Shown: positions 23,895-43,428, numbered from the stretch's first letter. The stretch is DNA of 52,041 nucleotides from Lachnospiraceae bacterium (GCA_045603305.1 JAZULV010000004.1:1-52041), one strand, 5' to 3'. Notes: generated by a model not told the origin, from the letters alone. A program made the numbers and translations.

Positions 23895-23961
23895 AATCAT
23901 TCTCCTTTCAAAGAGCTGTGACATGGCTTACAGTTAATATATCATAGCTCTTTAGATTTTT

Positions 23962-24739: not shown

Positions 24740-25237
24740 AAAAAGCTGATTGCAAAAAATGCGTTAATTTTCTTCAACTTTTTCTCCTGTCAGTTATTAC
24801 TTGGAGTCAAAAAATGCTGATGACAAAAAATCCGGCAAAAAAGAAGAAAGTCACCAACATTTCTGCTGATGACTCTAAACCTCAACAATATTTACTTGTA
24901 ACTTCTCATAAGTGGCATTTTCTCACATTCTGAAATTACCGGAAAATTAGTCTCAAAAAATGAGACTGACTTGTCCAGCGTCTCTAAAAAGAATCCATCG
25001 TCGTTAGACAGTTCCCAGTGTCTCTGGACAGAGACACCCAGCAAAATCAAGGGTTTCAGAGGCTCTGTCTAAAATTCCGAAAACGTAGAATTGGTCTACG
25101 TAATTGGACTGCGAAAAAAGCAGGATACGCCTAAAGTTGTATACTTTACGCCAGAAACTTCACTCCCAGGGCGTTCACATTAGGGTTCCCCTAAGACCCG
25201 AATATTGATCATAAAGAACACTTTTGGTCACGATGAC

Positions 25238-25281
25238 CAAAAGTGCATAAAAAATACCAGTGAAACTACAAGACTGTATTT
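25238..25281 (-). terminator. Strong Rho-independent terminator closing the minus-strand defence array
   Basis: On the minus strand, a 12-bp perfect stem ataccagtgaaa / tttcactggtat with a 14-nt loop is followed by U6. A second perfect palindrome, acttttggtca-cga-tgaccaaaagt, lies just downstream at 25209-25235. Confidence 0.6.
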
Positions 25282-25392: not shown

Positions 25393-27186
25393 TTATACAA
25401 CAAACACCTTACAACTTAATTCTAATAAATAATTTAGCCAATTATCCATGTTTTCTTGTGACCACTCTTCGTACTGTTCAAATTTAGCATTTATGTGATA
25501 CTCCGACTGCATATATATTAGTCTTTTCTCTTCATATGGCTTATTCTTAACACGTTCACCATTTTCTTCTAATGTTAAAAGTGTCAAATTGCGTAATTCA
25601 TTGATATCAAAGGTAGGTTCAACACCATCCTGGGGATTTTGTGAATAAATATGTTCAATAGACACATTCTCAAAATTGATAACAGTTCCTGTCTCTGCAT
25701 GCGGTCTTCCATTAGCACCATCATCACACCACTTATGGTATTCATTCAATGTCGCAAACAAATATTTGAGTAATTTATTACTACCTTTCTTTATATATTT
25801 CAAAGATTTAAGATTTTCCTTGAACAAAGCATCCCCTGCTTCTGAAACAATTAGGGGTCTAAGCTGTTCTGTCAAATGACCGACTCTGTACTCCAACAAA
25901 TTATCACGAATATATTTTGCTTCCTTCATAAAAATATCCGCAACTTTTTGATGTTTATTATTGCAAATACCTTTATATCTAAACATAAACCTTTCAAGCA
26001 TTTGAACAATATCGTTAAATTTGGTGTGATTCAACTCCGCTGCAGAAATAAGCAATGCTAACGTTATTTCATAATCCAGGTAATCAATCAAGTTCTTCAG
26101 TCTATTTCTATCCCATACAGTTATTGGTTGCCTTCCTTCAAATGGCCACTCACCCGACTGAATCTTGTAAAATTTGCAACTAGCCTCGTATATAGCCTCA
26201 ACAATGCTTACAACTTTTTCTTTTTCTTCTTCAGTATATTCTGCTTTATTTTCCGTTATTCCAAATATATTTTCTATGTAGTCATCAAATAGCGAATTAG
26301 TTCCCGCTCGTTTTCCCATAACGGACATATAATAATACCTTAAAAATCTGTCGACAGCCTTGCTCTCTCCTGATAATATCTCATCCCACTTGTTAAGAAT
26401 CAAATCTTCTTCCCTTGACGAACTATCTTTTGCCACAATTTCCAAAGTTCTCGATTTTAACAAATCTCCTACAGTCAGTCCCATTCCTCGATCATTTAAA
26501 ACCTGGAATAAAGTATATGCATCTCTTTTAGTCTTTGCATCAATAAATATGATAGTACAGCATTTATCGATTGCATCTTCAATATTTGCTAATACATTTA
26601 TTTTTTCATTAAAATCCGATTCTTCATCAACGCTTGTAGACACATACGAAAGCAACTTCTCATAGGCTTTATTCATTCTTTTATGAGACTCTCTGTTTCC
26701 CGCCTTTGGTGTACCAGAAATAATTGCTTCATAACATTCCTCGTCAGCATGTGACACCGTTAAATGTCGCACAACCACTGGTTTGCGATTTATTTCATCT
26801 TCATAATTAATATATTTTCGTTCTATCTTCTCCAAACGTTTCTTGACAATTATAGAACTATCTTCATCGGGTGCCAATGCGATAATCTCCCCATATTTTT
26901 TATAGATAGACAATATCAACAACATTGTAGTGGTTATTCTTTGTTGGCCATCCACTAATTCTCTCTGTTGTCTATTAGACCCCGGTACTGTTTTTTCAAC
27001 ACATACAATTCCCCCAAAAAAATGATCCTTATTATTCTGATTCTTAATTAGTGTCGCCACGTCTCTAATGTAATCTTCAACCTGCTCATCTTCCCATGCA
27101 TAATATCTTTGATATTTGGGAACTTCAAATAAAAAATTTTGTTCAAAAATCTTTCCTATAGTAGTATATGATGGAAATATATCCAT
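25393..27186 (-). CDS. GmrSD-family type IV (modification-dependent) restriction endonuclease: DUF262 N-terminus plus DUF1524 C-terminus
   Basis: 597 aa. The N-terminus has FEVPKYQRYYAWE and VDGQQRITT, the ParB-like DUF262 motifs. The C-terminus has IEHIYSQNP, a His-Me finger / DUF1524-like motif. RBS GGAGGATAAAG. Confidence 0.75.
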   Translation of the reverse strand: MDIFPSYTTIGKIFEQNFLFEVPKYQRYYAWEDEQVEDYIRDVATLIKNQNNKDHFFGGIVCVEKTVPGSNRQQRELVDGQQRITTTMLLILSIYKKYGEIIALAPDEDSSIIVKKRLEKIERKYINYEDEINRKPVVVRHLTVSHADEECYEAIISGTPKAGNRESHKRMNKAYEKLLSYVSTSVDEESDFNEKINVLANIEDAIDKCCTIIFIDAKTKRDAYTLFQVLNDRGMGLTVGDLLKSRTLEIVAKDSSSREEDLILNKWDEILSGESKAVDRFLRYYYMSVMGKRAGTNSLFDDYIENIFGITENKAEYTEEEKEKVVSIVEAIYEASCKFYKIQSGEWPFEGRQPITVWDRNRLKNLIDYLDYEITLALLISAAELNHTKFNDIVQMLERFMFRYKGICNNKHQKVADIFMKEAKYIRDNLLEYRVGHLTEQLRPLIVSEAGDALFKENLKSLKYIKKGSNKLLKYLFATLNEYHKWCDDGANGRPHAETGTVINFENVSIEHIYSQNPQDGVEPTFDINELRNLTLLTLEENGERVKNKPYEEKRLIYMQSEYHINAKFEQYEEWSQENMDNWLNYLLELSCKVFVV

Positions 27187-27212: not shown

Positions 27213-27878
27213 CTATGCATTAAATGTTATTTTAATTTTATCTGAGAGTTTTTTTTCCTTTATCCACTCTATTATTTCACTTGACAAATCGCCTATTGTC
27301 GCTTTTCCGTCACTAGCCAATCTTAAAAACAGCAATATTTCCGAATCTTGTCCAAGCTCTAAATCATCCAAAATCTGCTCTGCATCCATTTTCCCTTGTT
27401 TCAGATAATTATAACTTTCAACTGAACCATTCCATGTACTTGCTTTTTTTATTTTATTAATTGCAAATGTCGCTCTACTCTCATCTGGCAATATTCCTCT
27501 CACCACATTCAGCAAGCTAAGTATGTTCTCAGTAGTTGCTATATAATACTCTGTCCACTCTTGCCCCAACACAGCATACAATTTCTTTGATTCAGATGAA
27601 ATATATTGTGTTGTTGCATTATTCGCAGCTCCTGATTGAACCACTTTGTCACATGCAACCAAAAAGCCTTTTAACGCACTTACCACATTAGCAGATGGTC
27701 TAAAATCCGAGTTTTCAACTGCAAGATTAACCTCATCAATTATTTGCTTTAAACTTGCAATCAACTGTTTAAAGTTGTAGTCCGCAGTCGCCTGCTTCTT
27801 AGTATCTGCAGAAGCTGTTTCCATTTCGCGAACAGTCTTCATATCAATTATGCATTCATTTAATGTATCAATTAACAT
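27213..27878 (-). CDS. Hypothetical protein (221 aa). It is the last of a three-gene overlapping unit.
   Basis: RBS GGAGGGGA. Its start overlaps the preceding gene by 7 nt. No motif was recognised. Confidence 0.5.
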   Translation of the reverse strand: MLIDTLNECIIDMKTVREMETASADTKKQATADYNFKQLIASLKQIIDEVNLAVENSDFRPSANVVSALKGFLVACDKVVQSGAANNATTQYISSESKKLYAVLGQEWTEYYIATTENILSLLNVVRGILPDESRATFAINKIKKASTWNGSVESYNYLKQGKMDAEQILDDLELGQDSEILLFLRLASDGKATIGDLSSEIIEWIKEKKLSDKIKITFNA

Positions 27879-30800
27879 ACTGTCCCCTCCAATTCAGCAA
27901 TTATTCTACTGCATTCACTAATAGTAACTTTCTCATTATCGAATACATTTTGAGAACCTGTTGGATTACTTCCTCCTCCAAGTTTTGCTTTTCGTACATC
28001 GAGTTCAGCCTGAATCTTTGCTATGTCAGCAACAACTTTCTTTAATAGCAGTTCCAATTTTTCAACTTTTCTAATAGGATCTTGTGAAAATGCCAAAATG
28101 CAATCTAAAGCATTTGCTGTTTTCTGTGCAGCAACTATTTCTTTAATCGCTTTGCTCGTTGACGTAGAGTATTTCTTAACTTCATCAAACAACTCCTGAT
28201 CATACTTTCCAGGCAGCTTTCCATCCTCTGCGGTTCTATAAAATTCAACTATCTTTTCAACCATATCTTCAATTTCTTCGTCATCAACATCCGTTGTTCC
28301 AAAATTTTCTTCGATAGTTGTCATTATCTCAGCAGCCTTTGCAAGCTCATCATCCCGAACTTTATCAAGTCTTTCTAAAATCGTCCTGAGATAATCTCGG
28401 GCATCTCTACGCGGCTTAACAGGATCAACCAAATCTAATACGGAAGATTCAACTGTCAATTTTTCATTTTTAACAGTTCTTACCATTGCATCAAATTTTT
28501 CTCTGTCTAAGAATACTTGCACACGACTCTCACCTTGAATAACATTGCAATACTGTATTACAGTATCTCTATTAATCTTATCATTCTCACTTCTCGTAAT
28601 GATTCCGAGTAACGAATTCCATGCATCTGAATGAGAATTAACACCTAAACCTCTTATTCCATTATCAAGAATGTGTTCTGCTTTTAATCCTTCAACTGTT
28701 GTAGCCTTTGATGACCCAAAGAGAATAACACGATAAAATTCAGCCATCATAGCGCATTTGAAATAATCTATATCTCTATTCTCAAATGTAGTAATGACCT
28801 CTATTAAAGGCTTCTTTATTTTCTCTGTCCAGAGTTGAACTCGATATACACGTCTATCTGCACCGTCAAAATTCCAGCTACGTTTACCAAGTACATTCCA
28901 TTCAAGAAACGCCTCGATAACAGCCTGGGTCTCTCTATCTGCTGGAAGTTTATAAAACATCTGATCCGCGCCTCGCTTCTGACGATCGAAACCTACCAAA
29001 CGGTCCTTTACCCTTTTAATTTTATCAATGTTATCCATAGAAACACCCTCAGCCTGCCAATCAATAGCTGAGTATAAGTAACTGCACATATCCTCTCTTG
29101 CTTTTGAAATTAGAACAACATTACCCGTAGTGGCACCAACATTAATGGTACCTCCTGCAATCCAATTTTCTATTACTTGCAAGCTTTCATTAAGCTGAGC
29201 TCTTTCAGCCTGAATCTTCTGTTCTGCTGCAATCTGCGCAGGTGTTTTTACCACAGTCGTACTTGTTGGAGTTTGACCTGCAGGCTGGTTTGCCGGCTTA
29301 GATTGTGTAGGTTTTCCAGATACTTTCTTTCCGTTTATAAGTGGAAATCCCATATCCTCATATACCTGTGTTGAAAGTCCTGATATATAAGTAGCTTCAC
29401 CTTCTTGGTAAATATCAGTTGTTGCATCACCCCAGATACACATAAAAAGATACATTCTTTCAAACTGTTCATTTGAAGCACCGGTCTTCTGAATAGCATC
29501 TCTAAGGCTTGAATTGATATTTGTATTTATGATTTTAAACCCAGGGAAATTATCAAAATTCCACAAGGCATCTCGAACAGTTTTTTCTACAACATCTCTT
29601 AACAGATATCGAGGGGTTCGATAATTCTCTTGCAAAAGATTATTATACAAATACACTATTGCTCTTCTTGAAAATGGGAAAAGATTTAATGATTTTCCTT
29701 CTTCGGTTATAGCAACATCCCATCCATTACCTTGCTTCACTTCATGCACAGGCAAAGAATCTCCTGAGCCATCCGAAGCAGCCCACTCATCAACTTCATC
29801 TTTAGGTAAAGACATTGCATTCAAGTATCTTCCCACAAACTCGCATAAATCAGCTTCACTAGAGCCGAAAACATCATCTGGGATTACAATGAACTGAGTA
29901 ACACGATCCTTATAGTTATCACGGAAATTACTCTTATAATATTCGCTTGTAGTTCCAATAATTGATGAAATTCTACACATACCTTCCTGCTCGTAATCAC
30001 CGGTATGCCACGTAGTAAGTACATTTAGTAACGCTTCATTGACACCTGTAAAAGCCGTAATATCTTCTATCAACAGCGTTAATGATTTACCTTGCTTCTT
30101 TAATTCTTTTCTTATTTCTTTAAATACCTGTTCAAAGTCTCCTGGTTCCAATCCCGCGCAGCTCTGAATTACTGTATCAACCTTTGAATTAAGATATTTG
30201 GCTACAGCATCTGCAACCTCTGGCTCCATATACAACTTTTCGAGCAAACGTACAGCCTTTTTATCTCCTCCGTCATACTGAACTTTGTCACAGAATGCGA
30301 TATCAACTTGAAAATCCTCTGAAAGGAATTCAGGAACAACATCTCGATTATCTGATGTACTGCTTTCAGCAACTTTAGAATAAATTCTTGCAATTGGACC
30401 ATCATCCGCCATCATTCGTGCCTTAAACAATTCATTATTTAAAAGTGGTGCAATTCTCTTTCTATCAGCATTATTAAGATAATCAATATCTTCGCCATTA
30501 TCATCCTCTATTTCAACAATAAACTGATGATAAATAGCATTCATCAATTTGCTCTCACTAATAGTTGATGTCGCATTAACTAATCTCTCATATAAATCTT
30601 TATTCTGAATGGATGCTACTTCCGGTTTTTCTAAAAGCTGCTTAATTGTTCCTTTCAATGTGTTGTCACTTCTTCGCACAAAAAGAACAACCTCGCTATC
30701 TGGTTTCTGCTTTTCTATTTTTGCATCAAACCATCTAATCAGATGAGATTTACCTGCACCACTTGATCCAATTACAAGAACAAACTGATGCTGATCTTTT

Positions 30801-30991
30801 GGATTTAGTACGACTCTTTTGTATATCTGTTCTTCCGTATATGCTTTGGATGCCGCACTCGAATCATATTCCTTTTGCAATTTAATTTGCTTGAAAGGAA
30901 CATGCGTAGCCATAAAATCACCATATGAACTGGTAATAGTATCTATTCTTACTACTTCTGATAATCTCTGTTTTGCAACTTCTGAATTCAT
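27872..30991 (-). CDS. Large P-loop NTPase (about 1039 aa) of unknown family
   Basis: The ORF track opens on TTG. A likely ATG at 30989-30991 follows an AGGGGG RBS. Walker A is VLVIGSSGAGKSHL and the Walker B-like motif is TLLIEDITAF. There is an internal low-complexity linker (KPTQSKPANQPAGQTPTSTTVVKTPAQIAAEQKIQAERAQ) and a long helical C-terminus. Confidence 0.65.
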   Translation of the reverse strand: MNSEVAKQRLSEVVRIDTITSSYGDFMATHVPFKQIKLQKEYDSSAASKAYTEEQIYKRVVLNPKDQHQFVLVIGSSGAGKSHLIRWFDAKIEKQKPDSEVVLFVRRSDNTLKGTIKQLLEKPEVASIQNKDLYERLVNATSTISESKLMNAIYHQFIVEIEDDNGEDIDYLNNADRKRIAPLLNNELFKARMMADDGPIARIYSKVAESSTSDNRDVVPEFLSEDFQVDIAFCDKVQYDGGDKKAVRLLEKLYMEPEVADAVAKYLNSKVDTVIQSCAGLEPGDFEQVFKEIRKELKKQGKSLTLLIEDITAFTGVNEALLNVLTTWHTGDYEQEGMCRISSIIGTTSEYYKSNFRDNYKDRVTQFIVIPDDVFGSSEADLCEFVGRYLNAMSLPKDEVDEWAASDGSGDSLPVHEVKQGNGWDVAITEEGKSLNLFPFSRRAIVYLYNNLLQENYRTPRYLLRDVVEKTVRDALWNFDNFPGFKIINTNINSSLRDAIQKTGASNEQFERMYLFMCIWGDATTDIYQEGEATYISGLSTQVYEDMGFPLINGKKVSGKPTQSKPANQPAGQTPTSTTVVKTPAQIAAEQKIQAERAQLNESLQVIENWIAGGTINVGATTGNVVLISKAREDMCSYLYSAIDWQAEGVSMDNIDKIKRVKDRLVGFDRQKRGADQMFYKLPADRETQAVIEAFLEWNVLGKRSWNFDGADRRVYRVQLWTEKIKKPLIEVITTFENRDIDYFKCAMMAEFYRVILFGSSKATTVEGLKAEHILDNGIRGLGVNSHSDAWNSLLGIITRSENDKINRDTVIQYCNVIQGESRVQVFLDREKFDAMVRTVKNEKLTVESSVLDLVDPVKPRRDARDYLRTILERLDKVRDDELAKAAEIMTTIEENFGTTDVDDEEIEDMVEKIVEFYRTAEDGKLPGKYDQELFDEVKKYSTSTSKAIKEIVAAQKTANALDCILAFSQDPIRKVEKLELLLKKVVADIAKIQAELDVRKAKLGGGSNPTGSQNVFDNEKVTISECSRIIAELEGTVC

Positions 30992-30993
30992 AC

Positions 30994-31788
30994 TCAACCC
31001 CCTATCGTAATATGGGTAACTGTAGTCTCAAGCTCATGTCCTTCACAGGGATATAACGACCATATTTCTTGAGCATCCAGTCTATGCTCTGCTTTGATTA
31101 CTCCTAAATCGTTGAGCATTCTAATCGCATTTGAAAAACCATAATTAAATGTCTTTGTATCAACAGTATTATGCAAGGCGATTTTTGCATACGGCATTAT
31201 CACATCGACAAATTCATCTATTGCATATTCTGTTTTTTTCTTTAACTTGAGGCTTTCAATAATATCTCTGAGAAAAGCGGCTGCATTTGGAAGCAAAATA
31301 CCAGCAGCACCAGCCTGTGAGTCATGCATATACCCAAATCCCAGAAACGCCATCCAGAATCTCCACGCACGCATATCATCCTCTATTACTTTTTCTCCGA
31401 TATTACGTTCCATAACATCACTCATTTTAGAAACACTATTATGGTCAAGCACTTCTGTTCCCATGTCTAAATACCCTTGAGTAACCTTATAGAACAAGCT
31501 ATCTGAAACAAGCTCCAAGTGCATATTGATATAATGCCTCATGTTATCCATGCTTTTTACTGCATCCTTATCTACCGCTAACGAGATTGTATTTTCCTTT
31601 GTATTTATAAGCTGCAATTGTTCTGCAGCAGTCCTTACAATACCAAAATAAGGCGTCTTACCTCCGAGGTTCTGCGGTTCAAGCAATAGTTTTAGTGTAT
31701 TCTCATCCATTGGCTTGCTTGCCACTTCTCTACAAAGTGCATATACTCTTTCAGGTATTGCAGATGTTTGCATTCTATTTCCAAACAT
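30994..31788 (-). CDS. Hypothetical protein (264 aa)
   Basis: ATG with RBS AAAGGATG. Its stop lies 2 nt from the start of the ATPase gene. No motif was recognised. Confidence 0.5.
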   Translation of the reverse strand: MFGNRMQTSAIPERVYALCREVASKPMDENTLKLLLEPQNLGGKTPYFGIVRTAAEQLQLINTKENTISLAVDKDAVKSMDNMRHYINMHLELVSDSLFYKVTQGYLDMGTEVLDHNSVSKMSDVMERNIGEKVIEDDMRAWRFWMAFLGFGYMHDSQAGAAGILLPNAAAFLRDIIESLKLKKKTEYAIDEFVDVIMPYAKIALHNTVDTKTFNYGFSNAIRMLNDLGVIKAEHRLDAQEIWSLYPCEGHELETTVTHITIGG

Positions 31789-31792
31789 AATC

Positions 31793-34294
31793 CTACATCC
31801 TTTCCAAAATATAACTATCTATCTTTGGCCCTTCGACCATAGCAGATATAGGCTTTTGAACCTTTTGAATAAAGTAATCCTCTTTAACTATGTGAATCAA
31901 TTTAATATCTTTATTCTTATACTTTCTCAATGTCATGCAAAACTCATATACTTTATCTGCACCGGAATTATACAATGCAACAACACCTCCCGAGACATAG
32001 TAACCTGACCCCTGCGTGCACAATTCTCGATATTCTTTGATTCCTAAAATCATTACATTACTCTGCTTACTCATATTAAGAATTAATTCAAAATCATTCT
32101 CAATACTTGTATCCTCAACAACTATTACAACAGCGCCAGCACTCACATAACGATTTATTAAGGAATAATCGTCCTCTTCACCAATAACAAGAACCTCATT
32201 TTCGCCCTGGCACAACTTATTTAATTCGGGTGATATTTGCTTCTTAGGCTCTTTTACTGGTAATAGCAGTGGAAATTTACCCTCTTCCATCGTTTCAGGA
32301 TACTTATGTTTTGCACATCCACCGCAATACATAGACACTTTATCGTATGTAGAATAGAACATTTCCGACCAGCAAATCCTATCACTGAAGTCAATACCAT
32401 TTTTTATTCTCTTGATTTCTCTTTCAAAACCTTCCGACTCTCTATCCCTGATTTCATTTATTATTGCCGGAACATCTGCGGATTCATTTCTAAGAGCATC
32501 ATCCAATATGTCAACACGAATCTTATAACATTCATTTTTAGAATCATAAATCATTGACTTAATTGAAATCAGATTGTGTCGACGCAAAAGAAGAATAACA
32601 TACACATTCCACTGAATGTCTATTTCACTCGCATCGTCATCTTCTTTTGTAACATTGTAAATAGGTTTCACAGCTGTATCTAATGTTACCATTCCCTTAA
32701 ACCACAAGGATGTCTTGCTCTTATACATACTAAGCCAACGTCCCCATATCTTATCTGCGCTAAGAACTTTATTCATTCTCTTATGTGCAGAATCAATGTC
32801 ATCAACTGGATTAATACACATTACACTTAAGCTCACTAACCCATCTCGACCGCCTCGACCAAGCTCCTGGTAGTATTGATTGGGTGTATCCGGAATGTAC
32901 AAATGTAGTACAGTTCGTACATCTCCTTTATCTACACCTACACCAAATGCTGAAGTTGCAATGATTAGATCTATTTTATTATTTGTCCAATCCTTTATTA
33001 TTCTCTCTCTCTCAGCAGACTTTGTATCACCGGTAAATGTCTCTAAGTTATTGAGCCCTGCAGAAACAAGAGTCTTTTTTATCTCTTCCGCTTCCTTGGG
33101 CGAATTAATGTAAACAACCATTGGATGTGGCAATTTTTTTACCAGCTCAATCATCTTTCGTTTTTTATCTGAATAGCTCTTGGCTTTCACAAGCAAATAC
33201 CGTGGCTCATGTCTCAGCGCATCACACCTAATCTCAATCCACTTTCCAGTTGTTGTAAACATTTGCTTAAGTTTCATCACGGCTGTTTTTGTATACGTCG
33301 CAGATAACAACACTGTGCGCAACTGCGAATTCATTACTAACAATTCCTTGCGCCATGGTTCGAGACATTGATAATCTACTCTAAAGAAATCACCCCATTC
33401 AATAACTATATGGGCCTCATCAACAATCAGATTTTTCAAATATTTCTTGGCATTAGCCTCATTTATCATATTCACAAATTCAGTATTTCTAATAAGAGCT
33501 TCTGGTGATATAAACAGCAATCTGGCAGTTTCAGCTTTAAGTGCATTTCTAAGAGCATTTTTACGTTCTAATTCAATTCCGCTGTAATAACAGAATATCT
33601 CATTATCCGCATTATGCTTAACATTATTCTTCGCATTACGAACCTGGTCAATTGCTAACGATACCGTAGGTACTATAACAATTGTAAGCCCTTCTTGTTG
33701 ATATGCCATTGTCTGTGTAATTAAGCTTTTCCCACCACCGGTTGGAAGTGAAACTAGAGTAGTGTATCCTTCTGGAGTGTTCAATGCTCCAAATACTGCC
33801 AGCTTCTGCTCTAAAGACTTGAATTCTTTGTAACAAGTCAAATTGTAAATATATGCATTATTACCATAAAATATATCTTTCTGTTTTTCCGCATCTCCTC
33901 CAACTTTCTTTCTCTGAAATGCCTGGTCCACAAAGAAAGAATCAATATAGACTGGCATTTCAAGACTTGCATAGTATAGCCCTTCCGCATTCAACATAAT
34001 GCCATACTCATTTTCTGGTGGTATCATCCCATCGGGAATGGATATTTCATTCTGAAAAACTAACAAATAGTTTCTCAAAGAGCATAAAAAGACATCTTTA
34101 TTTGCAACTCCCGACTTAAACTTTTCGAAATAGATAACCAATCTTTTTGCTGTATTATATCGGAAGCTATCAATTGCAGAGTCCTCCCCAACGAATGTGG
34201 GCATAGCACCACTGGCATTACCATTTATATAATTTTCAACATAGGTTTCTATCACCTTCGTATCCATTATTTCTTCACCATCCAAACAAAGCAC
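31793..34294 (-). CDS. RecQ-like SF2 DEAH helicase with N- and C-terminal extensions
   Basis: Motif I is LPTGGGKSL, motif II is IVDEAHIV (DEAH) and the RecQ-type motif VI is QELGRGGRDG. The C-terminal roughly 350 aa contain Cys pairs (YCGGCAKHK). The track start is GTG. An ATG at about 34267 (MDTKVIETY) overlaps the stop of the upstream SNF2 gene as TAATG and is the likely true start. Confidence 0.75.
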   Translation of the reverse strand: MLCLDGEEIMDTKVIETYVENYINGNASGAMPTFVGEDSAIDSFRYNTAKRLVIYFEKFKSGVANKDVFLCSLRNYLLVFQNEISIPDGMIPPENEYGIMLNAEGLYYASLEMPVYIDSFFVDQAFQRKKVGGDAEKQKDIFYGNNAYIYNLTCYKEFKSLEQKLAVFGALNTPEGYTTLVSLPTGGGKSLITQTMAYQQEGLTIVIVPTVSLAIDQVRNAKNNVKHNADNEIFCYYSGIELERKNALRNALKAETARLLFISPEALIRNTEFVNMINEANAKKYLKNLIVDEAHIVIEWGDFFRVDYQCLEPWRKELLVMNSQLRTVLLSATYTKTAVMKLKQMFTTTGKWIEIRCDALRHEPRYLLVKAKSYSDKKRKMIELVKKLPHPMVVYINSPKEAEEIKKTLVSAGLNNLETFTGDTKSAERERIIKDWTNNKIDLIIATSAFGVGVDKGDVRTVLHLYIPDTPNQYYQELGRGGRDGLVSLSVMCINPVDDIDSAHKRMNKVLSADKIWGRWLSMYKSKTSLWFKGMVTLDTAVKPIYNVTKEDDDASEIDIQWNVYVILLLRRHNLISIKSMIYDSKNECYKIRVDILDDALRNESADVPAIINEIRDRESEGFEREIKRIKNGIDFSDRICWSEMFYSTYDKVSMYCGGCAKHKYPETMEEGKFPLLLPVKEPKKQISPELNKLCQGENEVLVIGEEDDYSLINRYVSAGAVVIVVEDTSIENDFELILNMSKQSNVMILGIKEYRELCTQGSGYYVSGGVVALYNSGADKVYEFCMTLRKYKNKDIKLIHIVKEDYFIQKVQKPISAMVEGPKIDSYILERM

Positions 34295-37200
34295 GCTGAT
34301 TCAAGTCTAACAGTCGGTTTGGTAAGACTTTCTAATACAACGTCATATATTTCTTTCATCCTATCGTAATCTTCAAGTTCCTGATTATAGTATTCAGAAG
34401 TAGCAACCATTGATGTAAGAATTCTGTCCATCTCTGCTTTAGCCTCTGCCGTATGAGATCTTTCTCTAAGAACCTTTAATGCTTTATCCTTACTAACTTT
34501 TCTTGACTTCTTAACTAAATCTACCCATCTTTCCTGTGGATAAACACTTCTAAAATAGTCAATATTAGTGGCTCTATATTGAGAGAAGATATGTAAAAAT
34601 CCTTCATTCTTACTACGTCTTCCAAGATGATCAATATCATCCTTGCTACTCTCAAAATCACGCTGTAGCATCAGATTAAATTCTCTTATAACCTTATCAT
34701 CCGGTATTTCACCCTCAGCACGAATTCTCACAGGTACCTGTACCTGCTCTACCGCTAGATAGTTTCTAAATACACTCAAATAGGAAAGCGGAACTCCTTT
34801 TTCAATCAGCAGCCTTTCATTTGGATACAGTGACCATGTATAAACAAAACCAGTCCAATTTATACTTGACTTCATCGCAAAGGCTGCTGCCTGACCTCTA
34901 CAAGACCTCATTGCATTATCAACAATACAATCGAATATATCATCTCCAGGTGCAAAGAAGTGAATATAGTCGTTTTCAATTGCCTTCTTTCTACTAAAGG
35001 TACCATCAATCGACCGGCTATGATGCATTGTGTTTTTATCCTGCTTGTCCTGTCTTAATTCATGTATCTTACTAATAAACTGATTTTGTTTCTGTGCAAA
35101 ATATGAATCCCAATCCGGAGGAATTAGCAATGAATTTTCTGCAGATCTTGTTGAGAAGGAATTATCACTAAAACTAATAACCTCGTCCTTTTCCTCAACA
35201 TCTCTAAACCCTGCAAGCATTGCCCATTGAAGCATCGCATCCGCAAACATTTTATTTTCATTACGATTATAGTATTTAACCAAACTAATCAATTCCTGAT
35301 TCATCGGTCTATAGATATACGCCGCAGTATCAAAATGCTGTTCTTCACGCACTTCTTCTTTTAGCTTTGCTGATCTTTCAATTACATTCTGTATTTCATT
35401 TGTTAATCCAAATCTGAAATCTTTAATAATAGCTGATACTATCGCATTATTAATATCATTCATAATAATCTCTAATCCACTCAGAGAATGATTAAATATT
35501 TTCAATCCGTTGTTCCAGAACTTAAACAGCTCTTCTTCCAATGTTTCTTCTGCATAAGGAACCACAGATACGATAGGTCGTCCACTTTCTCTTCCCATAC
35601 GATCCAGTCGACCTATTCTCTGTTCTATTGCATTTGCATCCCACGGCAGGTCAATATGAACCACATAGTCCGCGCATTGGAAGTTTCTACCTTCTCCACC
35701 TGATTCATCACAAAGCATGATTGTACAATTCTTATCATTTTGAAATTTGCAAACATTAACCTCTAACTCATCAGCAGACATGCCTCTTCTAAAACAACTG
35801 AATCCGTCCTCTGTATAAAAGTCAGCAAGCATTTCTTCATATACTTCAAAAGTCTCTTTATAATTTGTAAATAACACAACTTTTGAATCAGTTGCATATT
35901 CATCAAGATAGTACATCGTCTGCACTATTCTAGAAGTATGTTCTTCTGGCTCATCCAGAACACCTACAATATTCTCGGCAATGTCCTGTTCATACATTTT
36001 CCATCTATGTAGATTTTCCTTCAGGCTATCCGGTATAACCACTCCATCTGCTTCCAAGAACTTAACCTGCTGTTCAAAAGCCCATGGTGAACTAAAGAAC
36101 GTACCAAAAAGAGGCTTGAATATCTTTTCAAATTTCTCTTCCGTTATTTCCTTTTCAGTAATCCATGTCACTAAATCCTGATATGCACCGTATTCATAAA
36201 AGTTTTTATCCGGATCTAAAGCATACGGAAGCGAAGTTAGCTGACGCTCCGGCAAATCTTCAAGTGTTTCTCTTCTATTTCTGATAATATTCTTTTCAAT
36301 CTGATAATTTTCACACAAGTACGAAATAGCAACTTTGAAATGATGAAGGCCCAAATCATCGTCATCAAAATCAGCCTTTTCATACATTTCTTTAAGCATT
36401 TCATCTCCTACGTTTTTATAAAGCTTTTTAAAACCGCTCAGAATATCCTCGTAGAAATCCTCGCTATCTTCATTATCATGCGGATTTTCTTCTGCCTCTA
36501 AAGAGTCTCTAAAAATCTCATCTAAATCCTCAATATTAGACAACACCATTGCTGCCACTTTAGTAATATTTCCTTGTTTTTCAACCAATTCATCAAATTG
36601 CTCTTTAGTACAAGAATCATACTTTTCAGGAAGAATCAAACGAAGTAAATCCAGATAATCTGTTCTCTTCTGCTGAACTGGCGTAGCACTAAGCAAAAGC
36701 AGATTTGTAGTGTTGCAACTCAGTCTATGGAACGCATCATAATATGCCTTATATCTTAACAATCTGTGTGCTTCATCAATTATTGTAAAATCCCATTGTT
36801 CTTTACATTCTCGATCAGCTGCTGTCTCTAGCTCTGCAAATGTAATAAAGTTATTATTCTCATTTTTTCCTTCATACAAGTCGAACTTTAAGAACAGCTC
36901 CGTTTTCCATTGTCCTAACAATGCCCCTGGAACAACAATCAATGCATTAACATCACTATGTCTTGAGAAATACACCTTCAAAACAGATGCTGCTTCGATA
37001 GTTTTACCCATACCAACCTCGTCAGCTAGCATATATCTGCAAACGTCATCCTGAAGACATCTCATAATAGACTTAAGCTGATGCGGCATTAGAAAAATCT
37101 TGCAACCCGCTAATTCTTTAAATCCCATAATAGAATTATCCAGAACATTCATTGTCTTTGTAACAATACTTCTACCAAACAGCCAGCAAGGATTTTGGAA

Positions 37201-37605
37201 TTCATAACCCTGCAACTGAGAAGCCGGATCCACTTTGCCTACCATGAATGGTGCTATAATTCGATTTTCCGGAACACAAATTAATGTTTTGTCATACTCG
37301 TTCTCAATATAATAATCATAGAATTCATCTTCCTTTTTTACACAGGCTACAACCTTATACTTCTCCTTCTCGTAGAGAACAATCGAGCCCACAAAGAACT
37401 GACATCTTTGAACCATTGATGTTGGAAGAGGCGCAGTTTTTGGGAAGTTGTCATAATACACTCGATAATTAAATGGGTCGTTAAAAACAACCTCGACAGT
37501 ATCTGCGTAACTATCTATTTTAGTAATCTGCCCCATCAAAAAATCACGCGGATTAATCATGTCATAATCAATCGGACAGCGTACATACATCTTCTCTAAT
37601 AACAT
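34267..37605 (-). CDS. SNF2/RAD54-family helicase (1112 aa)
   Basis: SNF2_N motifs LADEVGMGKTIEAASVL and TIIDEAHRL. The helicase-C motif is IDLPWDANAIEQRIGRLDRMGRESG. It has roughly 150-aa N-terminal and roughly 450-aa C-terminal extensions. RBS AAAGGATGAG. Confidence 0.85.
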   Translation of the reverse strand: MLLEKMYVRCPIDYDMINPRDFLMGQITKIDSYADTVEVVFNDPFNYRVYYDNFPKTAPLPTSMVQRCQFFVGSIVLYEKEKYKVVACVKKEDEFYDYYIENEYDKTLICVPENRIIAPFMVGKVDPASQLQGYEFQNPCWLFGRSIVTKTMNVLDNSIMGFKELAGCKIFLMPHQLKSIMRCLQDDVCRYMLADEVGMGKTIEAASVLKVYFSRHSDVNALIVVPGALLGQWKTELFLKFDLYEGKNENNNFITFAELETAADRECKEQWDFTIIDEAHRLLRYKAYYDAFHRLSCNTTNLLLLSATPVQQKRTDYLDLLRLILPEKYDSCTKEQFDELVEKQGNITKVAAMVLSNIEDLDEIFRDSLEAEENPHDNEDSEDFYEDILSGFKKLYKNVGDEMLKEMYEKADFDDDDLGLHHFKVAISYLCENYQIEKNIIRNRRETLEDLPERQLTSLPYALDPDKNFYEYGAYQDLVTWITEKEITEEKFEKIFKPLFGTFFSSPWAFEQQVKFLEADGVVIPDSLKENLHRWKMYEQDIAENIVGVLDEPEEHTSRIVQTMYYLDEYATDSKVVLFTNYKETFEVYEEMLADFYTEDGFSCFRRGMSADELEVNVCKFQNDKNCTIMLCDESGGEGRNFQCADYVVHIDLPWDANAIEQRIGRLDRMGRESGRPIVSVVPYAEETLEEELFKFWNNGLKIFNHSLSGLEIIMNDINNAIVSAIIKDFRFGLTNEIQNVIERSAKLKEEVREEQHFDTAAYIYRPMNQELISLVKYYNRNENKMFADAMLQWAMLAGFRDVEEKDEVISFSDNSFSTRSAENSLLIPPDWDSYFAQKQNQFISKIHELRQDKQDKNTMHHSRSIDGTFSRKKAIENDYIHFFAPGDDIFDCIVDNAMRSCRGQAAAFAMKSSINWTGFVYTWSLYPNERLLIEKGVPLSYLSVFRNYLAVEQVQVPVRIRAEGEIPDDKVIREFNLMLQRDFESSKDDIDHLGRRSKNEGFLHIFSQYRATNIDYFRSVYPQERWVDLVKKSRKVSKDKALKVLRERSHTAEAKAEMDRILTSMVATSEYYNQELEDYDRMKEIYDVVLESLTKPTVRLESACFVWMVKK

Positions 37606-37623: not shown

Positions 37624-40287
37624 TTAGTTTCTTCCATATTTGTATGGTTCCAAACAAATCTCTCTTACACCACAGTACTGACACCACTCATCACAAGATT
37701 TTGCACAGCCAGTTGCATTTACTCTGTTACTGCTTAATCTCGCATCGATTTCACCCTGCGGAACATCCTTAAAATACCCAAAGAAGCTTCCATCACCATT
37801 TCCAAGTTGAAGGTAAATGAACTCCTCACGTTTTTTCATATATATGTCATCCGTAGGACTTATCATTGGAAATGTAGTACCATTTTTAAGCACACTCTTT
37901 TGCAAATAGTTTTTTGCATTCGTAATAATATCCATACGCTCTGTGTGCATATCCTTAACAAACTCAAACTTTCGTTCAAGTTTTTTATACTCATCATTTA
38001 AAGTATCAAGCAACACATCCTCGGTAGCAATCTGTCCCTGCAACACAACTCTCGCCACATTCTCCAACAAAATCTCCAAGTATTTTAACAACAGAAAATG
38101 ATCCCTAAAAACTGCCCTCTTCTCAATTGTAGATTCCAACAAAAATCTGTATTTACATATCTTGTATCGGTAGAAATCATATTGTCCATAATTATTCTCT
38201 GTATTAAGTTCAAGGTGCAAATTTCTTACTGCTTTCGGTAAAGTTCCAGTAGGTTTATCTTTTGGATAAACTTTCTGAGCCTCCAATATCTTCAACAAAT
38301 AGAACATCTCATTCTCTTTATCATCAACATTTTTTACATAGCTTAACTTAAACTTTACCCTGTTAAACTGGAGCCCATATATCAACGCATATCTCTTAAA
38401 ATTCTTATACTCTCTTCTAGATTTAACATAAACCTGGTACTTCCAATCAATTGGATCTTGCGCAACTTCAAAGAAAGTCACGTCCAAAGGCCATGGAAAT
38501 CTATCTCTTCGAGTTACGTTCATATCGTTATCTGAAAGGCAGGCAAAATGATATATTATATCCTTATTCTGTTTTCTACTCTTTAAGATATCGCCATCAA
38601 TCTGCTCAAAATCTCTTACTATCCAATTTGCACTTATCCCCTTTTTAGTCTCCTGTTTCAGATAATAAGCCATTGTCTCTTTCAGCACATCAAAAGAACC
38701 TGTAGCGTCAATCTTATCAACCTCTTCCAAGCGAATGAGCACACGCTTTACTACATCTCTAAATTCATCTTCAATATCTTCCGCTTCAAGTATTCTTGTT
38801 TCAAGGAACTCTTTTATTCTCTTATAGAATTTTTTAAAGTTATTCTCTGTATCCTCAAAATCTGCATAAAATAGCTTTGTAATCTGATCCAGCTGCTCCA
38901 ATGCCGCAACTAATGTATCTATTTCCTCTGAAGTAACGTCAAAGTATACCAATCTACTACCTATGCGTTTTTCAGTTACATCTTTCTCAGCTTTTTTAAT
39001 TCGCTTCTTAAGCTTTCCTAATAGGTCAGTTATCTGATCAATGGTTTCCGCACGTACAAAAAATTCTTTTGTTCTGTTGAAAATAGAATAAAGCTTTCCA
39101 GGAGTTTCTTCTTTTATAAATCCTGAATTCAGACATTCTACAATATCATTCATATTTTCAATCTGAATTCCACCTTCCTCTGGATTCCACATATTCGTAA
39201 TGGAAAGAAAAAAATGTCCAATAGGATATGTCAGGAAATGACGTTCACCAAATTGTCCTGGGTAATAAATCTTGAGGATATTGTTTACGCTGTTATTAGC
39301 CGCATAGAATTGCTCTTGCATATAATAAAGCGTTGATCGCCTTACGTCTTTATCTCTTTCTTGGCGTTTCAATGCGTCCTCAAATACACTAGCAACATAG
39401 CTGGCAAACTCCGTATTATTATCAAACTCCATTACTTCAAAAGGACAATCTTCTTCATTTTCTTCCGGATGTCCCTCTATTAAATTTGCCATTCTATCTG
39501 CTAGCAAATTTCCTTCATAGCTATTCGTCAGCAATGGATTAGGCTTAAACTCATTCGTAAACTGACTTTTGATAGGCATGTCAAATGATGAATATACATC
39601 TATCCATGTCTGATATACATTCTTGTACTGCTGCTGATAATTGAACAAAAGAATTACTCTTTTATACTTTGCCACCAATTCAATAGTTTGAAGAATCATT
39701 GGCGAAAACTGATGTACTCCATGAATCACAATGGTATCTAAATCAACAGCACTTATGTCTGCGTCTTCACGTTCTAACTTCATGCCTTCTCGAATCGCAT
39801 TCTCGATTTCAGCTTCTGAAAAATGTCTTTTCAACGTAAAATCCTGAACCAAATCTGATTTTCTTATTATTCTATAAAGCTCTACAAGGTGGCGTTGTTC
39901 CTCTGTCAACAAATCAGTTCGCATTTCATCAAGGCTCATATCTAGTTCAAACAAAATGCGCAAACTATTACTGAGTTGCTTTCTATTGAATCTTAGCGAC
40001 TGCCTAATCTTTTCTGAATTATCCGTAATGTTCAATCTGGAGATAGCCTCATCTATCACGGTGTATTGCTTTATTTTGCATTCACTGCTTTCCCAATATG
40101 CAAAGAGTCCTTTTACCAAGTTCTCAACAGTAGATACTTTACCTGCTGTCATATCTTCGTACGTTCCCATCATTCCGTTTGCCATAGTTTGTGACACACA
40201 GAAATGAGGGCTATTTTTAATGGAATCCCAGTATAATTCTTTATTTATTTCATATGGATTGCTGTATGTATAAATAGAAAACGGCAT
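37624..40287 (-). CDS. Hypothetical 887-aa protein with a C-terminal Cys cluster that resembles the iron-staple of RecB-family nucleases
   Basis: RBS GGAGGTG. It has no P-loop. A lone Cys lies in HFACLSDNDM about 280 aa before the C-terminus, and the last 30 aa read GCAKSCDEWCQYCGVREIC, which contains C-x2-C-x5-C. That arrangement is used by AddB, Cas4 and Dna2 to frame a PD-(D/E)xK domain. The nuclease motifs themselves could not be confidently located by eye. Confidence 0.5.
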   Translation of the reverse strand: MPFSIYTYSNPYEINKELYWDSIKNSPHFCVSQTMANGMMGTYEDMTAGKVSTVENLVKGLFAYWESSECKIKQYTVIDEAISRLNITDNSEKIRQSLRFNRKQLSNSLRILFELDMSLDEMRTDLLTEEQRHLVELYRIIRKSDLVQDFTLKRHFSEAEIENAIREGMKLEREDADISAVDLDTIVIHGVHQFSPMILQTIELVAKYKRVILLFNYQQQYKNVYQTWIDVYSSFDMPIKSQFTNEFKPNPLLTNSYEGNLLADRMANLIEGHPEENEEDCPFEVMEFDNNTEFASYVASVFEDALKRQERDKDVRRSTLYYMQEQFYAANNSVNNILKIYYPGQFGERHFLTYPIGHFFLSITNMWNPEEGGIQIENMNDIVECLNSGFIKEETPGKLYSIFNRTKEFFVRAETIDQITDLLGKLKKRIKKAEKDVTEKRIGSRLVYFDVTSEEIDTLVAALEQLDQITKLFYADFEDTENNFKKFYKRIKEFLETRILEAEDIEDEFRDVVKRVLIRLEEVDKIDATGSFDVLKETMAYYLKQETKKGISANWIVRDFEQIDGDILKSRKQNKDIIYHFACLSDNDMNVTRRDRFPWPLDVTFFEVAQDPIDWKYQVYVKSRREYKNFKRYALIYGLQFNRVKFKLSYVKNVDDKENEMFYLLKILEAQKVYPKDKPTGTLPKAVRNLHLELNTENNYGQYDFYRYKICKYRFLLESTIEKRAVFRDHFLLLKYLEILLENVARVVLQGQIATEDVLLDTLNDEYKKLERKFEFVKDMHTERMDIITNAKNYLQKSVLKNGTTFPMISPTDDIYMKKREEFIYLQLGNGDGSFFGYFKDVPQGEIDARLSSNRVNATGCAKSCDEWCQYCGVREICLEPYKYGRN

Positions 40288-40290
40288 CCC

Positions 40291-43200
40291 TTACACCTCC
40301 AGAAACTTACTCCAGCTCATATTGGATTTCTTGTCTGTATCCTTCATCCAGATACAATTTCTTATTGCTCTCGTCAATGCGACATAAAGTATTCTTGCCT
40401 CTTCACATATTCTCTGTCCGATTTCTTCCTGAGAATCATAATTTGAATTACAATCTTTTTTATTCTCATCAATCTTAATTGAGTACGCTAACTTCGAATT
40501 ACTATAATTGACATCTGTGTTTGCTTTTTTTAAATTATCAATAGCTTGACCAGTGAAAGGTAATATTACTGTCCCATATTCCAATCCCTTAGCCTTATGC
40601 ACGGTCGTGCAAAGAAATTTGATTCCTGTTTGATCTTCTGCAACAGCTCTTGCCAATTCTTGCTGCTTAGTTAAAATATTAATTTGAATGGAATTAGCAA
40701 TGACTGTTAATGTTAAATAATCAACACTATATGATTTAATTATTTTTTCAATCAAAAGCTCATAATTAGATTTATAGAATCTTTGCTTATCAACATCCTC
40801 GCTATACTTATTCCATGGTTTAAGCGTTTCAAATATCGCCTTCAGAACAACAAGAACTGGATTAGCCTGGACATACGCAACCAACTCATTCCAAGTCTTA
40901 TCCATCCTCGCCATAAAATACGTATCTAAAGCTTCAACCAATTTTTTTGTTTGAGAACTCTTGTCTTCATTCTGAAGTCCTTGATACAAGAGTGGCATAT
41001 CTACATAATTGGATTCCATAAAGTTAACAAGATACACCGGATTATCGGGATTCGTTAACGCCATCAAAAGCTTACAAAAATCAATGGTCGAATCTAACTG
41101 ATACAGGTCACCGCCGACCTTTGTTTCAATTTCAACCTCTTCATCCAACTCCTTGCATCCCTTTATAATTGTTTCAATCTGCCAATTTTCTCTTACAAGA
41201 ATGGCAATTGTCTTTTCCTCTTTGCTAAGCTTTCTCCTTTTCTCTAATTCAATAATTTTAGCTTTTTCTCTCTTGAGTAAACCAAGTAAAACTTCTAACT
41301 GTTCATCATTCTTTCCATGAAATGGAATACATTCAAACAATTCTTCCTCATTAGCACCGCCATTTAAATTACTCACTAAATGATCTGAATCATAAGTATA
41401 TGGAAGCCAAGCACTTGCTCCCATTCCTTGAAAGATTTCATCCATTATTTCAAGTAGTCTGGAATCTGTTCGATAATTCGTATTAATGGTATGCTCTTCC
41501 CATTTATCGGGAGTTGCATTAAGTCTCTTAAATGCACTTATTGTTGCCCCTCTGAAACGATAAATACTTTGCTTCAAGTCGCCAACAACAAACAAATTAC
41601 AGTTCTTACCAATAAGCTGCTGAATCTTCAAAAATGAATCTATTTGCGCATCATCAGTATCCTGAAATTCGTCAATAAAAATATATTTGTAATCTAAATG
41701 TGTTTTCTCCTTGTCTTTCTGGTTAACAACATCATTCAGAATTATCATCGTTTCTCGTAAATCTATCTTATTGCTTTCTTGAATCTTTGTTTCATACTCA
41801 AGTTCCGCAGCAATAATGACCTCCATTATTATTTCATTGAAGAAAGAAAGTAATCCTGGAGCCTGCCCCAACTCGTCTTCCCTAATCTTTTTTATATCAA
41901 TGCTCTTGTTGTAGAGCTGGTTTGAAAATTCTACTAGCATTCTTCTAAACTGATACAAAGGAAGTTTTATTTCATTTATAAAATTAGGATTTTCGGCTTC
42001 CTTCTTTGCAATAAAATCATTGAGATATCTCTCATATATCTGCTCTTTTACGTAGTCTCCAGACGTGATTGCAAAATTATCTCCTAAGCCCATTTGCATG
42101 GATGCTTCCTTAATAATTTCACGAGCAAACTTATGGATAGTTGAAATACGCATGAAGTCGATATCTTCTATATATTTCAAAAATTTCGGATTCGATGTTA
42201 GTACAAAATAATTAATAAACATCTGCTTAAGTCTATTCTTCATGTTGTCAGCTGCATCGTTTGTAAAAGTAACCATCGCAACATCATCAATCAGATTAAC
42301 TGTAGGATTCTCATATTTATTGCAGAGAAAAGCAATTCTTGAAACCATGGAATATGTTTTTCCGGTGCCTGCTCCTGCTCTAACCAAGATGTTTTTTTCC
42401 GGAGAGGCATGTTCAATAAAATACTGCTGAATATTGAAAGGGCTTTTTTCTGCCAATCTCTCCAACAACTGTCTTTCTTCTGGTGTACATTCTCCTTCAT
42501 ATATTGTTGCGGATTCATCAAGTATATCTGCCAAATCTTCTACAACATACAATTCAAAATTAAATATTCTAAATACATTATTCTTTACTGAAAACTCATT
42601 GTCTGCATCTTTTTTTAATTTAAGATTATTCTTCTCTGCTAATATTCCCTTCTCGTTGAGCTCTCCCTCTAAAACATAAAGAATAGAGTCAGCCATATCT
42701 TCAGATGATACGAAAACAACCGTCTTTGTTCCTTTCAAATATCCATCTACAATATCGTGAATTTGCCTCTTCACAAACTTCTTAGTATTAGCTACAACCA
42801 CAGAATAAGGAACCTGATTGCCAAGTTCAAATGGCTTTTTCATCTGAAAATGTGGTTCAAAATGCTGCCTGATTTTTCCCATCAAATCATCATCCATTTC
42901 CGCGTGAGGAATGGATTTACACTGATTATATGCGTTAAGCAACTTGTCACCTAAACGCATAGAATCTGACAAATCTTCCTTGAAAATCGTTAATGTTTCT
43001 TCAGATACAATGTCTAACCTTTTTTCGTAGTATTCCTTCTTTGAAATAAATGGATAACATACTAAATCAAATATTAATGGACTTACATTGTATTTATCAC
43101 TTATCAAGTTTAATAATCCAAATCTGTAGGCTCTAGCTTGCTTCTTAGGCGATTTTTCAGGTTTTTCATATCCCTGAACAATAATCTCATCAACACCGGC

Positions 43201-43407: not shown

Positions 43408-43428
43408 GACGTTTACCCCCAATGTACA

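Follow-up and report, generated by a model that had tools for sequence, protein, structure and literature searches.

A Dpd-Type Helicase Cassette Encoded beside Phosphorothioation Genes in a Lachnospiraceae Bacterium

Introduction

A 52,041-nucleotide stretch of DNA from a Lachnospiraceae bacterium (GCA_045603305.1, JAZULV010000004.1:1-52041; "the window" hereafter means this whole stretch) encodes an SNF2 translocase and a DEAH helicase in two consecutive minus-strand genes, at positions 31,793 to 37,605, within the same operon as the dnd genes for DNA phosphorothioation. To which system do these helicases belong, and does that system read the phosphorothioate mark? A preliminary description of the sequence saw in the pair the helicase core of a class 1 DISARM system without a methyltransferase, possibly retargeted to phosphorothioate as the self mark, or else part of a Pbe-type replication-blocking module. 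The analysis presented here points elsewhere: the two proteins are probably the DpdE- and DpdF-like subunits of a seven-gene phosphorothioate-dependent restriction cassette, for which DndCDEA would act as the writer of the mark.

The question has a wider bearing, as about half of the phosphorothioate-modifying bacteria are without a known restriction partner. A gut-microbiome study placed the Lachnospiraceae among the dnd carriers and stated that undiscovered phosphorothioate-dependent genes must exist (PMC7464106).

Results and Discussion

The Two Helicases Are Related to DpdE and DpdF

Among the NCBIfam profiles, the SNF2 protein matched DpdE (NF041062) with 358.9 bits (cut-off 500), RapA with 204 bits, and DrmD (NF038317) with only 147.9 bits (cut-off 610). 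The PADLOC models gave 259 bits for DpdE vs. 138 for DrmD. With DpdE scoring higher in both libraries, the earlier assignment of this protein as DrmD-like was abandoned. Its AlphaFold2 model (predicted local distance difference test, pLDDT, 80.8; predicted template modelling score 0.76) retrieved RapA (6bog_A) in Foldseek over its whole length, with an E-value of 2.1e-40 across 1163 columns; other SNF2 enzymes matched through the ATPase core only (~1e-15). The N-terminal Tudor-like beta-barrels, the SNF2 core and the C-terminal alpha+beta domains of the RapA/BrxHII architecture are all present in the model. Judged by its profile scores and predicted fold, the protein is DpdE-like with a RapA/BrxHII architecture. 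BrxHII also belongs to BREX type 3, which shares this RapA-like SNF2 helicase with the window; however, the PglZ, PglX methyltransferase, BrxA and BrxB components of BREX type 3 are absent from it.

The DEAH helicase, with a GGGKS Walker A motif and a DEAH box, scored 461.8 bits against DpdF (NF041063, cut-off 550), 181 against RecQ, and 14.7 against DrmA (NF038326, cut-off 999). Profile alignment with the DpdF family extended over 802 columns (hhalign, probability 100). Its relatives in the PDB, BLM and RecQ, cover the core only (residues 167-489). By these comparisons, the helicase groups with DpdF and not with housekeeping RecQ. The former view of it as DrmA/MrfA-like had to be revised accordingly: the DrmA-type (YprA-family) helicase of Dpd is DpdJ (bioRxiv 10.1101/2025.09.15.676423), which is missing here.

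The Cys-containing C-terminal extension noticed in the preliminary description is real. It carries a zinc-type motif, C632-x15-C648-x2-C651-x2-H654 (in the numbering of an 824-residue protein, see below), which is kept in 62 dnd-linked relatives. The first three cysteines are common to 10 DpdF proteins linked to Dpd genes, in which the last position is also Cys: residue 654 (32306-32308 (-)) is His in 61 of the 62 dnd-linked proteins and Cys in 10/10 Dpd-linked ones. No Pfam family matched residues 500-833 even at E ≤ 10; hence, the C-terminal third is not a DUF1998 domain, and the profile check for DUF1998/MZB likewise found none in this C-terminus (E ≤ 10) or in the 264-aa (amino acid) and 221-aa proteins encoded downstream. 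The helicase thus lacks DUF1998, but its closest group is DpdF rather than housekeeping RecQ.

These assignments leave little room for a DISARM-like system (DrmD plus DrmA) minus its methyltransferase, which we regard as very improbable. What class 1 DISARM shares with the window is a multi-helicase defence operon and an SNF2 protein of the DrmD/BrxHII/DpdE group, three families that have been classed together as RapA-like helicases (bioRxiv 10.1101/2025.09.15.676423), and the SNF2 protein does match the DrmD models (148 bits in NCBIfam, 138 in PADLOC). Nevertheless, DrmD remains far under its cut-off and under DpdE, and DrmA reaches 15 bits where 999 are required. Furthermore, class 1 DISARM has a DrmA/YprA helicase, the DUF1998 protein DrmB, the phospholipase D (PLD) family protein DrmC and a methyltransferase, none of which the window possesses: in agreement with the preliminary description, no DNA methyltransferase, PLD or DUF1998 was found in the operon genes or in the other open reading frames (ORFs) of the window that were scanned. 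DISARM, Dpd and Druantia are connected by a helicase of the YprA/DrmA type, and this, too, is missing from 65/65 related cassettes (see below).

A Tight Junction between the Two Genes

ORF calls, domains and the junction sequence (GAAATAATGGAT) all bear out the reported TAATG overlap of the SNF2 and DEAH genes. The stop codon TAA of the SNF2 gene occupies 34269-34267 and an in-frame ATG of the helicase gene 34267-34265, so that a single base is shared. The length of 833 aa given at first for the helicase stands if translation begins at the upstream GTG at 34294, but not if it begins at the ATG of TAATG, from which the protein has 824 aa. This ATG is the probable start; 824 aa fits the 825-aa relatives.

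In 61/61 related cassettes, the second gene has its nearest in-frame ATG between -32 and +4 nucleotides (nt) from the SNF2 stop. The commonest forms of the junction are an overlap of 8 nt (22 loci), 1 nt (15) and 4 nt (6). The tight SNF2/DEAH junction is, hence, a trait of the family and no chance feature.

Five Consecutive Genes Are Shared with Dpd

In Dpd (DpdD-K, from Salmonella Montevideo and relatives), a helicase-rich core is likewise coupled to a set of DNA-modifying genes. As a reference, a Dpd cluster with an annotated dpdF was obtained from a Paenibacillus plasmid by a tblastn search of plasmids; it also carries queC, queD, queE, dpdA, dpdJ and dpdK. The proteins encoded around this dpdF measure 935, 1099, 867, 287, 1078 and 217 aa, and those of the window, in the same order, 887, 1112, 824, 264, 1041 and 221 aa. 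Five of the six position pairs, E to I, are homologous end to end in pairwise and profile-profile comparisons. Gene order and protein sizes agree between the two systems from E to I, and the tight E-F junction is shared as well.

The SNF2 protein is 31% identical to its Paenibacillus counterpart over its full length (1058 aligned columns). The 264-aa protein matches the DpdG-position protein over its full length in BLASTP (3e-20) and with a probability of 100 in hhalign (E = 3.8e-53); for the 1041-aa protein and the DpdH position, the values are 7e-96 and 6e-159. The hhalign probability is likewise 100, along the whole length, at the E, F and H positions. The 221-aa protein resembles the DpdI-position protein in BLASTP through its C-terminal 45 aa only (7e-10), and in hhalign across 222 columns (probability 99.9, E = 1.1e-31). 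Single-sequence scans of the 264- and 221-aa proteins against NCBIfam and PADLOC had given no match, and Pfam, NCBIfam and PADLOC yielded nothing useful for these two or for the 887-aa protein, even at E ≤ 10. A PDB sequence search with the DpdH-like protein was also without a match. DpdH and DpdI together have been described as a BrxC-like ATPase (bioRxiv 10.1101/2025.09.15.676423); with the profile libraries used, a relationship of the window proteins to BrxC was not detectable.

Two exchanges separate the window from Dpd, as judged by sequence homology. The first concerns the writer: DpdABC and the preQ0 genes, which produce a 7-deazaguanine base, were not found among the scanned window ORFs, and DndCDEA, which would place sulphur in the DNA backbone, take their place. 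The second concerns the periphery, where Dpd has DpdJ (in Paenibacillus a 1506-aa superfamily 2 helicase of the YprA type), DpdK (172 aa, a PLD protein) and DpdD. Neither Paenibacillus DpdJ nor DpdK has a counterpart in the window, and tblastn found no match to DpdJ, DpdK or DpdD in its relatives; instead, the window encodes a NERD-UvrD superfamily 1 (SF1) helicase and the 887-aa protein, a putative AddAB-like pair. The core proteins themselves are only about 25-32% identical between the two systems. A domain-level swap that could mark a phosphorothioate sensor was sought in E to I, but each of the five aligns with its Dpd counterpart over the whole length, and the divergence is diffuse. It is highest in the N-terminus of DpdF, the C-terminal half of DpdH and the N-terminus of DpdI.

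The Cassette Occurs with dnd Genes

A census was made by scanning one genome per species with an alignment of the SNF2 protein. It returned 80 loci, which were retrieved with flanks of 10 kb on either side and whose genes were typed by tblastn. Most belong to Lachnospiraceae and other Clostridia, and there are also some from Erysipelotrichaceae, Coriobacteriia, Negativicutes, Bacillus and Chloroflexota; the closest relatives of the window (92-93% identity) are Acetatifactor and Lachnospiraceae genomes. At 65 loci, the genes for NERD-UvrD and the 887-aa protein stand beside E to I. Genes of the dnd type accompany 55 of these cassettes: all 46 with complete 10-kb flanks and 9 of the 19 truncated ones. 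DpdJ and DpdA/tRNA-guanine transglycosylase (TGT) were found by tblastn in none of the 65. Another 11 loci are of the DpdJ type, with SNF2 proteins 26-33% identical to that of the window; dnd genes are present in none of them and DpdA/TGT in 4.

Two dnd layouts were encountered. In 16 loci, dndCDEA lie upstream, as in the window; in 38, dndB-dndC-dndD follow the last cassette gene. The DndC proteins of the two layouts are only about 35% identical. The existence of two arrangements with such divergent DndC proteins favours selection on the pairing over one inherited accident. The earlier idea of a helicase-rich engine retargeted to phosphorothioate is, thus, supported in its outline by the strict co-occurrence and the two arrangements, although not in its DISARM family assignments.

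When the SNF2 proteins are placed on a neighbour-joining tree, those linked to dnd group in one large clade, separate from those linked to Dpd, with a single outlier, locus L068 of Oceanirhabdus seepicola (2115-20472). L068 comprises the whole cassette in a very divergent form (27-33% identity), and its SNF2 protein is a deep dnd-linked branch near the Dpd-linked clade. Two genes (216 and 380 aa) are added ahead of its SNF2 gene, and its dnd genes are encoded on the other strand.

Genes for Mrr and GmrSD enzymes, both present in the operon of the window, occur in only 10/65 and 2/65 of the related cassettes; they are therefore accessories, outside the conserved cassette. The HARE-HTH (helix-turn-helix) plus Mrr_cat architecture has been described as a frequent neighbour of Dnd and a possible restriction enzyme (Rakesh et al. 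2024, PMC10853773). The GmrSD protein of the window (25393-27186) matches the PADLOC model "Orf5" end to end with 614 bits and the SspE models weakly.

Comparison with Known Phosphorothioate-Dependent Systems

DndFGH, PbeABCD, SspE and SspFGH are, like the cassette, encoded beside phosphorothioation genes and presumed to restrict unmarked DNA. The cassette has no sequence relationship to DndF, DndG, DndH or PbeA-D, and its SspE-like GmrSD protein is only an accessory. A search of the operon for DndF, DndG and DndH gave a sole P-loop match of 17 bits to the DndF model.

A Pbe-type replication-blocking module, the second proposal of the preliminary description, is exceedingly improbable. In PbeABCD, PbeA is a PLD-helicase and PbeC an SMC-like ATPase, and the two others are proteins of 66 and 152 aa (PMC6459918); the operon has no such set: the search for PbeA and PbeC gave only a match of 46 bits to the helicase C-domain of the PbeA model, without a PLD domain, which is all that speaks for such a module, and the only SMC-like protein of the operon is DndD. 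The 66-aa and 152-aa partners are absent as well.

A Putative AddAB-Like Pair in Place of the Peripheral Dpd Proteins

The first two cassette genes encode the NERD-UvrD helicase and the 887-aa protein. In the former, which is kept in the 65 related loci, the motifs are intact: D...EVK of the NERD domain, a GAGTGKT Walker A motif and a DEFQD box. Among proteins of known structure, AddA (3u44_A, 1e-18) is its closest relative by sequence. The 887-aa protein belongs to a family of 674 clusters at 50% identity that has no Pfam coverage; nine distant members carry no Pfam domain tying them to AddB, and a PDB sequence search with the window protein gave no match. One relative, 92% identical, bears the UniRef name "PD-(D/E)XK endonuclease-like domain". 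An alignment of nine diverse members revealed four invariant cysteines (C711 and C869-x2-C872-x5-C878), together with an invariant HGxHQFxP stretch at the site of motif II in UvrD-type helicases. The C...CxxCxxxxxC spacing is that of the iron-sulphur "staple" in AddB and Cas4 as well as in nucleases related to them.

Since the best PDB relatives of these two adjacent proteins are AddA and AddB, the subunits of one complex, and since the cysteine motif of the Cas4/AddB type is invariant, the proteins are read, with moderate confidence, as an AddAB-like pair. A UvrD-type SF1 helicase beside a degenerate-helicase partner with a C-terminal four-cysteine module is what they would share with AddAB/RecBCD. 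The differences are also clear: AddAB/RecBCD carry a C-terminal RecB-type nuclease, while in the window the helicase subunit has a NERD domain at its N-terminus; AddB measures ~1160 aa against 887 aa for the window subunit, and AddAB/RecBCD act in repair, whereas the pair of the window stands in a defence operon.

The 887-aa protein, which sits in the DpdD position, had also been considered as a divergent DpdD. This was dropped, as neither BLASTP nor hhalign against the DpdD family showed a relationship (probability 0.1%). In one distant relative of the 887-aa protein, P0323 (1439 aa), a PIN domain is fused at the C-terminus; some versions of the family may, by this, add an RNase-type effector.

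Proposed Mechanism and Its Alternatives

By analogy with Dpd, the following sequence of events may be envisaged. The HTH protein at the head of the operon would control a single long transcript, and DndCDEA would put phosphorothioate on the host DNA. The SNF2 protein, as a double-stranded DNA translocase, the RecQ-like helicase, the DpdH/I ATPase and DpdG would assemble into a complex that scans DNA and is under restraint where the mark is present. On incoming DNA without the mark, this complex would load or activate the AddAB-like motor, and the NERD domain would degrade the DNA. The subunit that reads the mark would lie more likely in E to I, or in contacts with the Dnd proteins, than at the periphery, because one locus, L036 (Butyrivibrio sp. 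JL13D10, 1190-9981), keeps the link to dnd without the AddAB-like pair.

A number of points weigh against phosphorothioate-dependent restriction by such a cassette. Locus L036 shows that a dnd-linked E-to-I block can have a different peripheral set of helicases and nucleases, and locus L033, which stops 1.3 kb past its last cassette gene, is non-coding there and has no dndB. The scores of E, F and H remain below the NCBIfam equivalog cut-offs (359/500, 462/550 and 336/450 bits), and these proteins are therefore divergent relatives rather than strict orthologues. For the 887-aa protein, AddB is the best PDB relative by fold with a template modelling score of about 0.27, from a poor AlphaFold2 model (pLDDT 56). 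The D...(D/E)xK catalytic motif is not conserved in its C-terminal cysteine domain among nine homologues, so the NERD domain is likelier to be the active nuclease. No phosphorothioate-reading domain of known type was detected in the seven cassette proteins. Moreover, Rakesh et al. (2024, PMC10853773) argue that the classical partner, DndFGH, is often not coupled to Dnd in function; adjacency alone is therefore no proof of dependence. Finally, the census is limited to one genome per species and to its 10-kb flanks.

In place of NERD-UvrD and the 887-aa protein, L036 encodes a UvrD-like protein of 641 aa, a DEAD protein of 1130 aa, a 629-aa protein of unknown type and a NERD-SF1 protein of 526 aa. 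An MT-A70 methyltransferase gene is located further upstream.

Several of these points would suit the strongest rival, an autonomous defence system that is blind to phosphorothioate and senses, for example, DNA ends or replication intermediates, as in systems of the Hachiman/RecBCD type, and that merely travels with dnd on genomic islands. DNA ends are required by an AddAB-like motor, the domain searches gave no phosphorothioate-binding domain, a common decoupling has been argued for DndFGH and Dnd, and the operon lies on an integrase-bearing island with the stand-alone restriction genes Mrr and GmrSD. We nonetheless consider such a system rather unlikely: mere co-travel would have to account for dnd genes at every one of the full-flank loci, in two arrangements and with two divergent Dnd lineages. 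The cassette is, in addition, co-oriented with dnd and, in the window, tightly packed with it into one operon, and the homologous E-to-I core of Dpd is always tied to a DNA-modifying module.

It is also improbable that the helicases only assist or police the modification, by loading Dnd proteins or repairing phosphorothioate-associated nicks, and have no part in restricting foreign DNA. Modification proceeds without such genes in many dnd clusters, and in Salmonella DpdA/B/C suffice for modification, whereas dpdD-K confer the restriction phenotype (PMC10164549). An intact NERD motif, and a composition of SNF2 protein, BrxC-like ATPase and nuclease that is typical of defence systems, fit restriction better, even if the classic repair proteins include enzymes of the AddAB and RecQ types and some Dnd clusters modify DNA by means of a helicase-fused DndEi (cited in PMC7464106). 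A restriction cassette that depends on phosphorothioate, thus, remains the favoured explanation.

Implications for Phosphorothioate-Dependent Defence

No description of a Dnd-linked cassette of the Dpd type was found in open-access papers and bioRxiv, among them papers on DpdE/DpdF, reviews of the Dnd neighbourhood and surveys of YprA helicases and BREX. A survey based on YprA would miss the cassette, because the cassette has no YprA helicase. Tentatively, it may represent a further, undescribed class of phosphorothioate-dependent restriction beside DndFGH, PbeABCD, SspE and SspFGH, and be the effector that many orphan dnd clusters in gut Firmicutes seem to lack. It is a concrete and widespread candidate, present in Lachnospiraceae, other Clostridia, Erysipelotrichaceae, Coriobacteriia and Negativicutes. 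Cultured type strains are among its carriers; examples of cultured carriers are Sellimonas caecigallum JCM 35759 (L019), Faecalicoccus acidiformans DSM 26963 (L023), Papillibacter cinnamivorans DSM 12816 (L024), Anaerocolumna xylanovorans DSM 12503 (L025) and Eubacterium ramulus ATCC 29099 (L062).

If the proposed reading is true, one DpdE-to-DpdI engine serves two chemically unrelated self marks, a sulphur in the backbone and a 7-deazaguanine base. Either no dedicated reader domain would then fix which mark is read, or the reading of the mark would have evolved anew in a scaffold that is itself conserved. Two versions of E to I with different marks and nuclease modules would provide a natural experiment on the mechanism of Dpd restriction: a comparison of both should separate the subunits that read the mark from those that merely move along the DNA or cut it.

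Organization of the Operon and Its Surroundings

The helicase genes belong to a 14-gene operon on the minus strand, which runs from 49689 to 25393 with dndCDEA near its head (Table 1). The genes overlap or nearly abut, and no strong internal terminator was seen: the first strong hairpin on the operon strand, 25246-25218, is past the last gene, with only weak consensus matches upstream of it. The Dnd genes are genuine, as had been proposed, with DndC, DndD and DndE all above their cut-offs. The cysteine desulfurase scored 356 bits against DndA (TIGR03235), under the cut-off of 480.

Table 1. Features of the phosphorothioation and helicase operon, with window coordinates, strand and supporting evidence.
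Feature	Position	Strand	Evidence
Cro/C1-type HTH regulator, first gene of the operon	49342..49689	-	Pfam HTH_3 2e-17
DndC, phosphorothioation sulfurtransferase, 3'-phosphoadenosine-5'-phosphosulfate (PAPS)-reductase fold	47964..49355	-	TIGR03183 419.9 bits, cut-off 290.4
DndD, SMC/ABC-like ATPase	45833..47983	-	TIGR03185 341.8 bits, cut-off 245.9
DndE	45449..45829	-	Pfam DndE 87.8 bits, cut-off 25
DndA/IscS-type cysteine desulfurase	44259..45452	-	Aminotran_5 2.8e-73
HARE-HTH + Mrr_cat restriction endonuclease, 272 aa, accessory	43429..44247	-	Mrr_cat 5e-33; HARE-HTH weak, E 0.04
NERD-UvrD/AddA-like SF1 helicase, 1043 aa, cassette gene 1	40291..43422	-	NERD, UvrD-helicase and UvrD_C domains
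Putative AddB-like protein, 887 aa, cassette gene 2, DpdD position	37624..40287	-	Degenerate helicase scaffold + C-terminal four-cysteine module
DpdE-like SNF2 translocase, 1112 aa, cassette gene 3	34267..37605	-	SNF2-rel_dom + Helicase_C
DpdF-like RecQ-family DEAH helicase, cassette gene 4	31793..34267 (ORF to 34294)	-	DEAD + Helicase_C
DpdG-position homologue, 264 aa, cassette gene 5	30994..31788	-	BLASTP 3e-20; hhalign
DpdH-like P-loop ATPase, 1041 aa, cassette gene 6	27872..30997	-	NF041065 DpdH 336 bits, cut-off 450
DpdI-position homologue, 221 aa, cassette gene 7	27213..27878	-	hhalign; BLASTP 7e-10
GmrSD/SspE-like (DUF262 + DUF1524) enzyme, last gene of the operon	25393..27186	-	GmrSD_N 1e-32, GmrSD_C 3e-17
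Terminator-like hairpin, 13-bp stem	25218..25246	-	Consensus match only

The HTH gene shares 14 nt with dndC and occupies the slot of DndB in other dnd clusters; against the NCBIfam RstR-type repressor model it reached 72 bits, under the cut-off of 80. Cassettes with dndCDEA upstream (the window, L003, L019 and others) have no DndB, save for a weak match of 23% identity in L015, and 27 of the 38 cassettes with dnd genes downstream have a set that begins with dndB. The dnd regulator, hence, seems to change with the layout.

A Tn916-type integrase gene (22827-23924 (-)) separates the operon from the housekeeping gatCAB genes (17693-20939 (-)), and the GC content drops across this point from ~0.43 to ~0.35. 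The operon is therefore located on an integrated element, the other end of which is outside the window.

At the opposite side, divergent from the dnd operon, a second gene of the PAPS-reductase family (360 aa, 49807-50889 (+)) was observed. It is not DndC and belongs to no named family; a distant relative, with 24% identity, is found upstream of the cassette in L050.

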